NCBI RefSeq assembly: GCF_003334765.1
Contig: NZ_QOWT01000001.1
DNA: 64,000 bases
Reading direction: 5' to 3' (one strand)
DNA from: Escherichia coli
GTDB lineage: Bacteria; Pseudomonadota; Gammaproteobacteria; Enterobacterales; Enterobacteriaceae
Under the pieces are notes generated by a model. That model made no database searches, was not told where the DNA came from, and saw only the letters and a list, made by a program, of their open reading frames with translations. The first letter of the stretch is position 1; every line of letters starts with the position of its first letter. Below, one piece after another: positions 28,649-50,116 of the stretch. The position numbers and the translations under genes were made by a program.

Positions 28649-31011
<2,363 letters not shown>

Positions 31012-33206: not shown

Positions 33207-33542
33207 ATGGGGCTGGTAATCAAAGCCGCGCTCGGTGCGCTGATAGTGCTGTTGATTGGTGTTTTAGCAAAAACGAAAAATTATTATATCGCCGGGCTGA
33301 TTCCACTTTTCCCGACCTTTGCGCTTATCGCGCATTATATTGTTGCCAGCGAACGCGGCATTGAAGCCTTACGCGCAACCATCATTTTTAGTATGTGGTC
33401 GATTATTCCCTATTTTGTTTACCTGGTGTCGCTGTGGTATTTCACCGGAATGATGCGCTTGCCCGCCGCTTTTGTTGGTTCTGTTGCGTGTTGGGGGATA
33501 AGCGCATGGGTGTTGATTATATGCTGGATAAAGCTGCATTAA
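33207..33542 (+). CDS. ydgC: GlpM-family small inner-membrane protein
   Basis: 111 aa, four predicted TM helices, MGLVIKAALGALIVLLIGVLAKTKNYYIAGLIPLFPTF... Confidence 0.85.
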   Translation: MGLVIKAALGALIVLLIGVLAKTKNYYIAGLIPLFPTFALIAHYIVASERGIEALRATIIFSMWSIIPYFVYLVSLWYFTGMMRLPAAFVGSVACWGISAWVLIICWIKLH

Positions 33543-34261
33543 CGCAGATGACGACCGCCATCAAGTGGGAAACTGCGTCCGGTGACAAAGCAACTGGTAA
33601 GTAAGTAATCGACCAGGTCGATCACTTCTTTCTCGCCAGGCGCGGTTTTCATCAGTGATTTATTCAGCGCCTGTTGTCGATATTCGGCATCATCATGTTC
33701 ATTAAACAGGATCAGCGATGGCGCAATAGAATTCACTTTCACTTCCGGTGCCAGCTTGCGGGCAAACGAGCGGGTCATATTATCCAGTGCCGCTTTGCTT
33801 GCAGCATACGCAATATGTTTGTCGCTACCGCGCTCCACCACATAATCGGTAAAGTGAATGATATCGCTGGCGGCGTGTCCGTGCCCACGCAGTAATCTTT
33901 CCAGCGCATGGTTGAGCAGGTATGGGGTATTAACGTGGATCTGCATCATGCAAGCCAGTACGTCGGCCAGTGGCGCACCCGGTTTTTCCGCCATCCACGC
34001 ACTGGCGTTATGCAAAATAGCACGCAGACCATGGGTGCTTTTTAGTACTTCATCGGCAAACGCCATCACACCGTCGTTGGTCGAAAAATCAGCCTGAATA
34101 CACTGCGCACCTGCATTAATCAGTCCATCAATGGCTGGATAGTGTGTCCGATAGCTGACAATCACCGGTTGCTTTTGATTAATGAAATGCCATGCGAGGG
34201 CGAGGCCGATGCGACGACCTCCGCCAGTAATTAATATTGGCAAGGGCTGGGTTTTACCCAT
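33539..34261 (-). CDS. folM: dihydromonapterin/dihydrofolate reductase (SDR family)
   Basis: 240 aa, MGKTQPLPILITGGGRRIGLALAWHF..., SDR YxxxK motif YAASKAAL. Confidence 0.9.
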   Translation of the reverse strand: MGKTQPLPILITGGGRRIGLALAWHFINQKQPVIVSYRTHYPAIDGLINAGAQCIQADFSTNDGVMAFADEVLKSTHGLRAILHNASAWMAEKPGAPLADVLACMMQIHVNTPYLLNHALERLLRGHGHAASDIIHFTDYVVERGSDKHIAYAASKAALDNMTRSFARKLAPEVKVNSIAPSLILFNEHDDAEYRQQALNKSLMKTAPGEKEVIDLVDYLLTSCFVTGRSFPLDGGRHLR

Positions 34262-47893: not shown

Positions 47894-48017
47894 CATTTTT
47901 TAACTGTTCTACCAAAATTTGCGCTATCTCAATTTGGGCCAGGAAAGCATAACTTAGACTTTCAAGGTTAATTATTTTCCTGGTTTATATTTGTGAAGCA
48001 TAACGGTGGAGTTAGTG

Positions 48018-48713
48018 ATGCTGAAGCGTTTCTTTATTACCGGTACAGACACTTCTGTAGGGAAAACGGTGGTTTCCCGCGCATTGCTACAAGCGTTAGC
48101 CTCCCAGGGAAAAACGGTTGCGGGATATAAACCCGTAGCGAAGGGGAGCAAAGAGACACCCGAAGGGCTGCGTAATAAAGATGCCCTGGTGTTGCAGAGT
48201 GTTTCAACCATCGAACTGCCTTATGAAGCAGTTAATCCTATCGCGTTAAGCGAAGAAGAAAGTAGCGTGGCGCACAGTTGCCCAATCAATTACACCCTCA
48301 TTTCAAACGGCCTGGCAAACCTGACCGAAAAAGTCGATCATGTCGTGGTAGAAGGGACTGGCGGCTGGCGCAGTCTGATGAATGATTTGCGTCCACTCTC
48401 TGAATGGGTAGTGCAGGAACAACTGCCGGTGTTGATGGTTGTCGGTATTCAGGAAGGTTGCATTAACCATGCACTGCTAACAGCTCAGGCGATCGCCAAC
48501 GACGGGCTGCCGCTCATTGGCTGGGTGGCTAACCGAATCAACCCAGGACTGGCGCATTATGCGGAAATCATTGATGTGCTGGGTAAAAAACTTCCGGCAC
48601 CGCTCATTGGTGAACTGCCTTATCTGCCGCGCGCCGAACAGCGTGAACTGGGGCAATACATCCGCTTAGCTATGCTGCGCAGTGTGCTGGCGGTAGATAG
48701 AGTCACGGTGTAA
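48018..48713 (+). CDS. ynfK: dethiobiotin synthetase paralogue (BioD-like)
   Basis: ORF track gives 235 aa; trimmed to [26 protein letters not shown]... (231 aa); P-loop GTDTSVGKT. Confidence 0.88.
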
Positions 48714-49922
48714 CGTCCGCGAAATTACCGACGCAATTACGCAGGCAATCAATAAACCGGGGAGTAGCTGATACTCCCCGGTCATTTCACATATCATCAA
48801 CGTCGACATAATCGGCGCGTGCGTGGTCGCCGCCAACAGTGTCGCCATCCCGGTCAATCCGAGTAAAAGTGTAATTTCTTCGCCATCAGGGAACCATAAT
48901 CCCAGGCTACGACCATACAACATGCCAATGGCAAGACCGATAAATAGCGTCGGTGTAAAGACCCCACCGGGTGCGCCGGAACCGCTACTCGCCAGCACGG
49001 CACACAGTTTACAAAGGAAGATCCCGGCAATGATCATTAACAGTGGTGGGGCGGTTAAAAAGGATTGTACGGTGCTATAGCCGTTGCCCCACACTGCAGG
49101 TGTGAACAGGGAAAGCAGACCCACGATCAACCCGCCTAGTGCCAGTTGCCAGGGCGGCGCAAGTTTGAGACTCACAAATCCACGATGACAGGCGTTCATT
49201 AACGTTAACAACAGTGGTCCGCACAGACCTGCCAGCACACCTGTACTGATAATCAGCGCATAGTCACGAGCCTGAACCGTCACTGAGAGTTGTACGTTGT
49301 AGAGTAACGCGTCGCTATGATTAATCAGATTGCTAACCAGCAATGCCACGACGGCGGAAATAATCACCGGGCCGAGAGAGGCCAACATCATAGTGCCAAA
49401 CAGCACTTCGGCTATAAATAAACTGCCAGCAAGCGGGGCACGATAGGCCGCAGCCATTCCCGCCGCGGCCCCACAGGCGATCCATAATTTCCACTCCTGG
49501 CGTGGCGTAAAACGTTGGGCAAAACAGGAGGCGGCAAGGGCAGCTAAAAGAATCATCGCACCTTCGCGACCAATTGCACTGCCGCTGGTTACTACCAGCA
49601 GAGAGGCAAGCGATTTAACCAGGCTTGCTGCGTAATCGAACTGTCCATCGGTTTGCAACGCTTCCATATAATCGGTCGGCGCATGAGGGCGTTGTTGGGT
49701 AAATTTCTGCCAGCCCATCAGCAACAAACCCGCCGCCAGTCCGCCGAGCGCCGGAGTTAGCAACCGTCGCCAGGGGGAAAGGTTTGTCGCTGCATTGACC
49801 AGACTGCCGGAGTCATTATTGAGGAACAACCACTCCAGTAGCAGCATCGCATGACGAAACCCGGCAACGGCAAAGGCCGCGAGAATACCGACGACTGTTG
49901 CGATAAGCAGACGGCGGAACAT
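48666..49922 (-). CDS. clcB: CLC-family voltage-gated chloride channel/antiporter ClcB
   Basis: ORF track gives 438 aa; trimmed to [26 protein letters not shown]... (418 aa); motifs GSGAPGG and GREGA. Confidence 0.9.
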
Positions 49923-50116
49923 AGTGCGCAGATCCGGATAGATGTGTAGATGATGCATGAGCAGAAATGGGCAATGAAACACGGGCGACTATTTTGCGGC
50001 AAAAGAGGCCAGCCGCAAAAGCAGTGCGTGCTTTAAGAGATAAAAAAACGTGACACTGTAACCTATTATTGCCGGATTGCGCGTAATCGTCACCATCCGG
50101 CAATATTACGGTGATC

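Follow-up and report, generated by a model that had tools for sequence, protein, structure and literature searches.

The coding sequences of ynfK and clcB, and those of fumC and tus, meet tail to tail with no DNA between them, which raises the question of where and how the transcripts of such convergent genes end. Both pairs lie in the stretch of Escherichia coli DNA analysed here (the window; 64,000 nucleotides), which is the E. coli K-12 fumA–ynfE region and is matched in 5422 of 5426 complete E. coli genomes. MG1655 is identical to the window over positions 48001-49000, and MG1655 coordinates (m) follow from window coordinates (w) as m = 1715237 − w. The initial annotation of the locus held that the overlaps leave no room for terminators, so that convergent transcription must collide or read into the opposing gene, possibly with antisense interference.

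Anatomy and conservation of the overlaps

The genes and their shared segments are as follows.

ynfK (bidA): 48018..48713, plus strand; BioD-paralog dethiobiotin synthetase, 231 aa, TAA at 48711-48713 (open reading frame and RefSeq)
clcB: 48666..49922, minus strand; CLC-type Cl-/H+ antiporter homologue, 418 aa in the MG1655 annotation
Dual-coding overlap: 48666..48713, both strands; YnfK L217-V231 and stop opposite ClcB L404-S418 and stop
ClcB Y410 codon (TAC): 48693..48695, minus strand; exact antisense of the YnfK V226 codon GTA
fumC: 28649..30052, plus strand; class II fumarase, 467 aa, TAA at 30050-52
tus: 30049..30978, minus strand; replication terminus site-binding protein, 309 aa, stop the reverse complement of 30049-51
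TTAA overlap of fumC and tus: 30049..30052, both strands; holds both TAA stops
ydgC (plus strand) and folM (minus strand) overlap: 33539..33542; 4 bp

Coordinates of the open reading frames and RefSeq agree with the initial annotation on the tail-to-tail overlap of ynfK and clcB (48 bp at 48666..48713) and on that of fumC and tus (4 bp with both stops at 30049..30052); the ydgC/folM overlap is a third convergent case, absent from that annotation. The clcB TAA is the reverse complement of 48666-48668. The ynfK and clcB frames are codon-aligned, and a TTA leucine codon of the partner lies opposite each TAA stop. RefSeq of strain EC2 carries the same overlap coordinates. In the MG1655 annotation, clcB is at 1665315..1666571 and bidA at 1666524..1667219, and tus is at 1684259..1685188 and fumC at 1685185..1686588. 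Both members of each pair are protein-coding genes with homologues: ClcA structures match ClcB (E about 1e-26), BioD structures match YnfK (E = 3e-65), Tus homologues contain PF05472 (Pfam), and FumC contains Lyase_1 and FumaraseC_C.

Both overlaps are instances of a frequent arrangement, a routine outcome of tight 3'-end packing in E. coli. Three of the 12 convergent pairs in the window overlap and 11 are ≤48 bp apart (spacings of −48, −4, −4, +2, +24, +33, +34, +38, +43, +43, +48, and +225 bp); with 11 of 12 pairs equally tight, there is nothing special about ynfK/clcB and fumC/tus. Genome-wide, E. coli has 75 convergent overlapping pairs (Huvet & Stumpf 2014, PMC4161906). Known prokaryotic convergent overlaps, like those described here, consist of two true coding sequences on opposite strands with common 3' ends. 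They comprise the 4-bp TTAA type with both stops, as in fumC/tus, and occasional cases of tens of base pairs, as in ynfK/clcB, without any essential difference (Rogozin 2002; PMC2478687; PMC4161906). Long genuine overlaps are tolerated in the convergent orientation only, and the majority of long convergent overlaps are kept only among close species (Pallejà 2008, PMC2478687). The 48-bp ynfK/clcB overlap belongs to the longer tail of overlap sizes, just below the 60-bp class of Pallejà, and its retention throughout the family is unusually broad compared with most long convergent overlaps.

That breadth is evident from the protein ends, which also answer the call of the initial annotation for a check of the stop positions by protein alignment. 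A scan for YnfK in the genome collection gave 80 species-level Enterobacteriaceae loci, and 60 of these together with the window provided 61 full-length clcB sequences. YnfK has 231 aa and its stop at the identical codon in 80/80 loci, including 12 species without downstream clcB. The C-terminal end of ClcB varies between genera (411 to 424 aa), yet clcB overlaps ynfK in 61/61 full-length cases, by 48 bp (n = 32), 45 bp (n = 14), 66 bp (n = 11), 27 bp (n = 3), or 39 bp (n = 1).

The shared segment carries conserved features of both proteins. The end-to-end alignment with E. coli BioD takes in YnfK residues 3-220, which leaves residues 221-231 as a YnfK-specific tail. Its length and a V/A-D-R motif are kept even without clcB, with D-R present in most clcB-less species. 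The D-S-I-Y sequence of ClcB is always within the overlap, where YnfK V-D-R is conserved as well. ClcB Y410 is invariant (61/61) and the YnfK V226 codon is GTA in 55/55 sequences. A local alignment with Salmonella ClcA terminates at ClcB 410, equivalent to ClcA 445, and Tyr445 is known as the central chloride-coordinating tyrosine of ClcA. Synonymous variability is lowered on both sides of the overlap (ynfK codons 209-231 and clcB codons 399-410), which indicates, from comparison of the aligned codons, that the overlapped codons are under selection in both frames. The overlap would be unable to fall below about 27 bp because it encodes the YnfK V-D-R tail and the invariant tyrosine of ClcB (S-I-Y). 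In the second pair, the lengths of Tus (309 aa) and FumC (467 aa) are the same in three Citrobacter species (C. rodentium, C. koseri, and the C. freundii complex), and so is the TTAA overlap.

Misannotation lies behind many long overlaps in databases (PMC2478687) and YnfK runs 11 aa past the end of BioD, so the overlaps might be thought artefacts of annotation or sequencing, such as an error that created read-through beyond a true upstream stop. The probability of this is practically negligible: the MG1655 sequence is identical, the sequence is present in 5416 of 5426 E. coli genomes, YnfK is invariant in length in 80 species, the ClcB tail always includes Y410, and errors in start codons are unable to produce convergent overlaps. 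Conservation of orthologue length and identity with MG1655 rule the artefact out. Read-through caused by a sequencing error, which the initial annotation named as grounds for rejecting the overlaps, likewise fails as an explanation since the YnfK and ClcB tails are both constrained. The two tail-to-tail overlaps are real and ancient, and the genes that form them are functional.

A hairpin within clcB downstream of ynfK

In the absence of intergenic DNA, each transcript has to enter the partner gene. For ynfK, reading into the opposing gene is borne out by a mapped mRNA end, which lies close to a hairpin.

ynfK hairpin: 48756..48782, plus strand; 11-bp stem and 5-nt loop within clcB codons T381-G389; proposed ynfK 3'-end element
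ynfK mRNA primary 3' terminus: 48790, plus strand; MG1655 1666447 minus strand, peak range 1666442-1666455
Centre of Rho termination region: 48723, plus strand; MG1655 1666514 minus strand, primary ynfK and antisense clcB; from 800-nt windows, so that the position is coarse

The terminus was significant in three replicates (TRS Supplementary Data 2, one re-analysed dataset; PMC10687069); a ynfK 3' end was not found in the Term-seq tables of Adams et al. 2021. The ynfK mRNA thus mapped extends 77 nt beyond its stop and is antisense to clcB codons 378-418. The hairpin follows the ynfK stop at a distance of 42 nt, and the terminus is 8 nt past its last paired base, after the tail CAUUUCAC (3 U in 8). 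The predicted folding energy in the ynfK sense is −21.5 kcal/mol (z = −6.2), with 7 G-C pairs in the stem. The hairpin is a perfect palindrome and folds on either strand (−21.5 and −21.7 kcal/mol). The only resemblance to a known RNA family was to Rfam SR6_antitoxin (23 bits versus a gathering score of 55, E = 0.19), which was taken as chance.

The stem codes for the conserved CLC motif TG[E/Q]Y..LLPG, and amino acid constraint therefore accounts for part of its conservation. At synonymous sites, only T381 (ACC, 61/61) and P388 (CCC, 61/61) have third positions that never vary among 107 conserved four-fold clcB codons. Both are stem codons, and by our own arithmetic the probability that both fall within the 4 four-fold codons of the stem is about 0.001. 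The third-position entropy of adjacent Pro, Thr, and Ala codons is 1.2-1.8 bits, and codons 375-388 form the lowest synonymous-entropy window in all clcB (0.57 versus 1.32 ± 0.21). In ynfK-sense RNA, 92.6% of cells in the alignment of 58 distinct sequences are paired; sliding the partner column lowers this share to about 40%. Stem pair 19:33, which sets ClcB Q/E383 against synonymous CTG/CTC codons of Leu387, occurs as C-G (n = 33), G-C (n = 18), and U-G (n = 3), and 0/500 shuffles reached the observed covariation score.

The hairpin also persists where clcB does not. It is intact in four lineages in which a 3' remnant of clcB is all that is present (L011, L021, L049, and L052), and a recognisably similar stem follows directly after the ynfK stop in five clcB-less lineages (CCGGGCAG/CTGCCCGG in Trabulsiella and Lelliottia, CCGGGGAGC/GCTCCCCGG in C. 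amalonaticus), where homology is based on about 12 nt and position. In the two C. amalonaticus lineages (loci L013 and L016), T7-T8 directly follows the stem and makes it a textbook intrinsic terminator. Other clcB-less genera have unrelated canonical terminators at the equivalent place. Synonymous constraint, covariation, and survival after the loss of clcB together indicate that the hairpin is selected beyond the protein code.

The strand on which the hairpin is used was approached through wobble pairs. Total pairing is close between strands (92.6% in the ynfK sense versus 90.4% in the clcB sense). Across the 8 core pairs, 7/464 cells are unpaired in ynfK-sense RNA and 28/464 in clcB-sense RNA. 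Synonymous transitions that keep pairing only in the ynfK sense are GGG to GGA (n = 9) and CAG to CAA (n = 10); those that would keep it only in the clcB sense (ACC to ACT and CCC to CCT) do not occur in the aligned clcB sequences. The apical pair 22:30 shows the reverse trend, with 28 U-G wobbles in the clcB sense that are mismatches in the ynfK sense. For the core stem, the wobble-pair test favours function in the ynfK sense; it is suggestive, not decisive.

The apical wobbles in those 28 sequences, and the position of the hairpin within a conserved CLC motif, are what would be expected if it were kept for clcB itself or as a DNA site and not for ynfK, whether as a translational pause before the last membrane helix, a stability element of clcB mRNA, or a palindromic protein-binding site. 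A SELEX peak of HusR (YnfL) inside ynfK, about 170 bp away, could be read in the same direction. Such a role is nevertheless very unlikely. The hairpin persists in lineages in which clcB is gone or a remnant, the core-stem wobbles favour ynfK-sense RNA, and the mapped ynfK 3' end adjoins the stem. The G-C to C-G swap keeps pairing while changing base identity, which argues against a protein-binding site. HusR binding was rejected as the source of the palindrome: by eye the consensus CnGnnnAnnTnnnCnG does not fit the hairpin, and the paper gives no HusR box for that peak.

Proposed 3'-end elements within the partner gene

Two features of an intrinsic terminator are found at the ynfK hairpin, a GC-rich stem-loop and the spacing to the 3' end (7-9 nt). 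A U-rich tract (about 7-8 nt) after the ynfK-sense stem is absent in E. coli, and a terminator consensus scan made no call on the plus strand; among the loci compared, such a tract occurs only in the clcB-less C. amalonaticus lineages. The E. coli hairpin lacks a good U-tract because its tail must encode ClcB M380-E379-C378. For want of that tract, it would behave as the protective stem-loop of a Rho-dependent transcript, although weak intrinsic activity is possible. Once clcB was lost, the same hairpin appears to have gained its T7-8 tract and come to resemble a canonical intrinsic terminator.

Published Rho data for the ynfK strand are consistent with this behaviour. Reads upstream/downstream of the Rho region were 85/11 in untreated cells and 292/159 with bicyclomycin, with a Rho score of 4.2 and p = 1.5e-6 (Adams et al. 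2021, PMC7815308). Read-through on this strand was thus about 13% untreated and rose about 4-fold with bicyclomycin, as estimated from low counts (about 85 reads per 800 nt) and 800-nt windows. The C:G ratio rises past the ynfK stop, to 1.2-1.36 over 48700-49000 from 0.8-0.93 upstream (0.96 in the whole window), a mild shift towards the C-rich, G-poor composition of rut-like RNA.

According to the model of Dar & Sorek 2018, a Rho-dependent transcript is shielded from 3' exonucleases by a stable, U-poor stem-loop at its end, and a simple gain of uridines can convert this stem-loop to an intrinsic terminator (PMC6061677). The ynfK element resembles this class in its stable stem-loop without a U-tract directly upstream of the steady-state 3' end, in its bicyclomycin-sensitive read-through, and perhaps in the mild enrichment of C over G downstream. 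The predicted switch by U gain is seen in the C. amalonaticus lineages. Unlike members of that class, the ynfK stem-loop sits in the coding sequence of a convergent gene, and its upkeep is through the choice of synonymous codons (the rare GGG, CCC, CTC, and CTA codons in E. coli).

The fumC/tus pair has a comparable element, and the Rho region on the fumC strand lies within tus.

fumC hairpin: 30064..30105, plus strand; 13-bp stem and 16-nt loop in C-terminal codons of tus, 12 nt past the fumC stop; candidate 3'-end element
Rho termination region of the fumC strand: 30342, plus strand; MG1655 1684895 minus strand, antisense to tus, 290 nt past the fumC stop

Predicted folding of this hairpin is stronger in the fumC sense (−25.6 kcal/mol, z = −4.5) than in the tus sense (−19.6). 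Across the four sequences compared it shows one compensatory change (G-C to A-U) and a single U-G wobble, and it is conserved in three Citrobacter species. The published datasets searched did not contain a fumC 3' end for K-12. Adams et al. 2021 (PMC7815308) gave the Rho region on the fumC strand a score of 5.6, with upstream/downstream reads of 83/16 in untreated cells and 36/39 under bicyclomycin. The third overlap is similar: a Rho region of the ydgC strand at 1681110(−) is antisense to folM and lies 585 nt beyond the stop of ydgC (Rho score 3.6; PMC7815308), and the mapped end of the folM transcript falls within ydgC, 92 nt beyond the folM stop (TRS, PMC10687069).

For the opposite partners, two published 3'-end datasets contained no clcB or tus 3' end. 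No tus 3' element was found inside fumC (the tus-sense downstream fold has z = 0.35 versus shuffles). In the E. coli fold, a hairpin with U6 about 80 nt beyond the clcB stop was considered as a clcB terminator inside ynfK, but it was negative in the scan and was rejected; outside the overlap, ynfK shows no synonymous-constraint outlier that would mark a clcB 3' element.

A distant relative illustrates how interlocked stops can arise. Tus was found in Escherichia and Citrobacter only, among the best 120 protein matches. Of three representatives with more distant tus, one has fumC on its contig, one contig ends just past tus, and one is <2 kb. In the first kind of arrangement (L090, Tus 47% identical), tus and fumC form the same convergent pair as in E. 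coli, with the same need to end both transcripts, and are separated by a 74-bp spacer with a classic bidirectional terminator. L090 keeps an A-tract, stem, and T-tract in this spacer, whereas Escherichia and Citrobacter have no spacer left and their stops are interlocked as TTAA. Another distant tus (L088) has a canonical terminator next downstream. Seen against these arrangements, the TTAA of Escherichia and Citrobacter, with its interlocked stops, is an ordinary layout in compacted form.

We therefore favour, with a probability of about 0.7, an explanation in which embedded stem-loop 3' ends and the action of Rho on read-through account for both overlaps, which are themselves genuine. A stem-loop that defines or protects the mRNA 3' end would be encoded within the partner coding sequence: for ynfK, the hairpin in clcB codons 381-389, and for fumC, the hairpin in the last tus codons. 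Rho would end untranslated antisense read-through beyond the stem-loop. The hairpin as the cause of the ynfK 3' end, its selection for the sake of ynfK, and the division of work between Rho and intrinsic termination are what we infer from the comparative and published data. Of the initial claim that there is no room for terminators between the genes, the absence of intergenic DNA stands. The conclusion that terminators are lacking does not, because the signals are embedded in the partner coding sequences (48756..48782 and 30064..30105) and Rho limits antisense read-through.

Collision, antisense interference, and significance

The initial annotation took the lack of room for a terminator to mean that convergent transcription collides or reads into the opposing gene. 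On this reading RNA polymerases would collide or make long antisense RNA, and each overlap (ynfK–clcB, fumC–tus) would be a regulatory device acting by transcriptional interference or antisense control. The ynfK mRNA does enter clcB, ending 77 nt past its stop, bicyclomycin raises read-through about 4-fold, and collision-driven termination is documented at other E. coli convergent pairs. In addition, FNR activates ynfK (PMC3688515), so that the clcB 3' end would come under antisense pressure only conditionally and any interference would be anaerobic. Against this, 3'-end formation is already explained by the hairpins and Rho, read-through in untreated cells is only about 13% at low read counts, 11 of 12 convergent pairs in the window are equally tight, and the YnfK tail has the same length in species without clcB. 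Antisense interference is unneeded to explain the anatomy and low expression counts against it; this reading is unlikely and disfavoured.

A narrower form of it can be imagined for the ynfK 3' UTR (48714..48790), as a conditional antisense regulator induced anaerobically by FNR. Stabilised by the hairpin, the tail of this RNA would base-pair with the terminal ~125 nt of clcB mRNA, including the Tyr410 codon, and the resulting duplex would either lead to cleavage or keep ClcB from being completed. If this highly improbable scheme were true, conservation of the overlap and hairpin throughout the family would reflect such a coupling, beyond ynfK 3'-end formation.

Bidirectional overlapping terminators at convergent pairs were reportedly found with SEnd-seq by Ju and colleagues in 2019. 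Collision-driven termination at E. coli convergent pairs was also described by Wang et al. (bioRxiv 10.1101/2022.10.23.513370). The hairpin at 48756..48782 could be part of a terminator of this kind, pausing polymerases travelling both ways, with release by head-on and trailing collisions. It shares with such terminators a convergent pair, a stem-loop near the point where the transcripts meet, and the lack of a canonical U-tract. Its perfect palindrome can fold on either strand, the published model requires a stem-loop where two 3' ends overlap, and the consensus scan flags the clcB-sense side as terminator-like.

The differences from these systems make this origin of the ynfK 3' end quite unlikely. 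The terminators of Ju and Wang lie between genes and are reported to be Rho-independent, whereas the ynfK/clcB hairpin lies upstream of the clcB stop, has a Rho-dependent score, and belongs to weakly expressed genes, while the model suits highly expressed pairs best. In the clcB direction the hairpin precedes the stop codon by 87 nt, so that an mRNA terminated at the hairpin would lack the codon of the invariant Y410. Furthermore, the clcB-sense U-tract is unconserved in other genera, and no clcB 3' end is present in the two datasets searched. The reported Rho regions on the ynfK, fumC, and ydgC strands do not fit the Rho independence expected of the SEnd-seq class. Embedded stem-loops with Rho acting on read-through remain the preferred explanation.

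Much of this locus was already known: the overlaps are annotated and belong to a well-described class, and published tables include the ynfK 3' end and the Rho regions. No prior description was found in the literature of the embedded, synonymously maintained hairpin or its survival after the loss of clcB. The ynfK/clcB hairpin illustrates known principles and does not amount to a system of a new kind. It provides a clean, family-wide case of a 3'-end stem-loop written into a neighbouring gene by the choice of synonymous codons, one that outlasts the loss of clcB and becomes a canonical terminator once the coding constraint is lifted. It cautions that the absence of intergenic space is not the absence of a terminator, and it exemplifies one way in which synonymous sites close to the 3' end of a convergent gene come under constraint.

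Spacing of convergent gene pairs

The 12 convergent gene pairs in the window are spaced at -48, -4, -4, +2, +24, +33, +34, +38, +43, +43, +48, and +225 bp, the +2-bp spacing being that of ynfC/speG. Close 3' packing of convergent genes is the rule in this window and not the exception. In addition to ynfK/clcB and fumC/tus, the two overlaps named in the initial annotation, there is a third convergent overlap that its list did not contain, a 4-bp overlap (33539..33542) between the following annotated genes:

33207..33542, plus strand, ydgC, convergent with folM
33539..34261, minus strand, folM, convergent with ydgC

The 3' end of the folM mRNA has been mapped within ydgC, 92 nt beyond the folM stop (PMC10687069), and a Rho termination region has been located 585 nt beyond the ydgC stop, antisense to folM (PMC7815308).

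Ends and integrity of clcB

The hairpin within clcB codons 381 to 389 (48756..48782), proposed as a ynfK 3'-end element, is called terminator-like in the clcB sense by a consensus scan (minus strand, 48783..48755; tail, UUUAUUGAUU). This call is situated 87 nt upstream of the clcB stop, and its U-rich tail is a product of Leu/Ile codon choices that other genera do not conserve.

Annotations disagree on the clcB start (49922..49982), with 418 amino acids (aa) in MG1655 and 430 aa assigned by PGAP in strain EC2; the longest open reading frame, from a GTG start, encodes 438 aa. In the E. coli strain E69 lineage (L003:3670..3696), a synonymous change of ynfK Leu224 from CTG to CTA creates TAG in the clcB frame, and ClcB is consequently 7 residues shorter, ending immediately behind Y410-R411 (Y410 being the invariant ClcB tyrosine), with a ynfK/clcB overlap of 27 bp. 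The overlap in Superficieibacter is also 27 bp. In a further complete genome, that of E. coli FDAARGOS_1337 (NZ_CP070026.1), clcB is broken by IS30, and the match is in two pieces with the IS30 transposase between them.

Regulation and remodelling around ynfK

The neighboring LysR regulator HusR (YnfL) has a reported genomic SELEX peak inside ynfK, with no recognizable HusR box (PMC12844172). If the published coordinate uses older numbering, this peak lies at about 48590 (MG1655 about 1666645). On the other side of clcB lies the following spacer:

49987..50069 (MG1655 1665168..1665253), dmsD-clcB spacer

Here, 3' termini have been reported downstream of dmsD at MG1655 1665172 and, with a hairpin, in the clcB 5' untranslated region at 1665250 (PMC10687069); clcB may therefore be insulated from the upstream FNR-dependent ynfEFGH-dmsD operon.

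An assembly labelled “Chryseobacterium sp. 18061” (L036, CACSKA010000003.1) carries an mlc-ynfK-clcB locus, with YnfK 88% identical to that of E. coli, and almost certainly represents mislabelled or contaminated Enterobacteriaceae sequence.

In several clcB-less genera (species-level loci L013 and L016, both C. amalonaticus lineages, and L032, L043, L059, L073, and L052), the convergent partner of ynfK is an ABC-transporter ATPase gene that ends in ISQDYIADYLSSGRTRRALNI and is located 35 to 204 bp from ynfK. The region downstream of ynfK has been remodelled repeatedly, with YnfK length constant at 231 aa.
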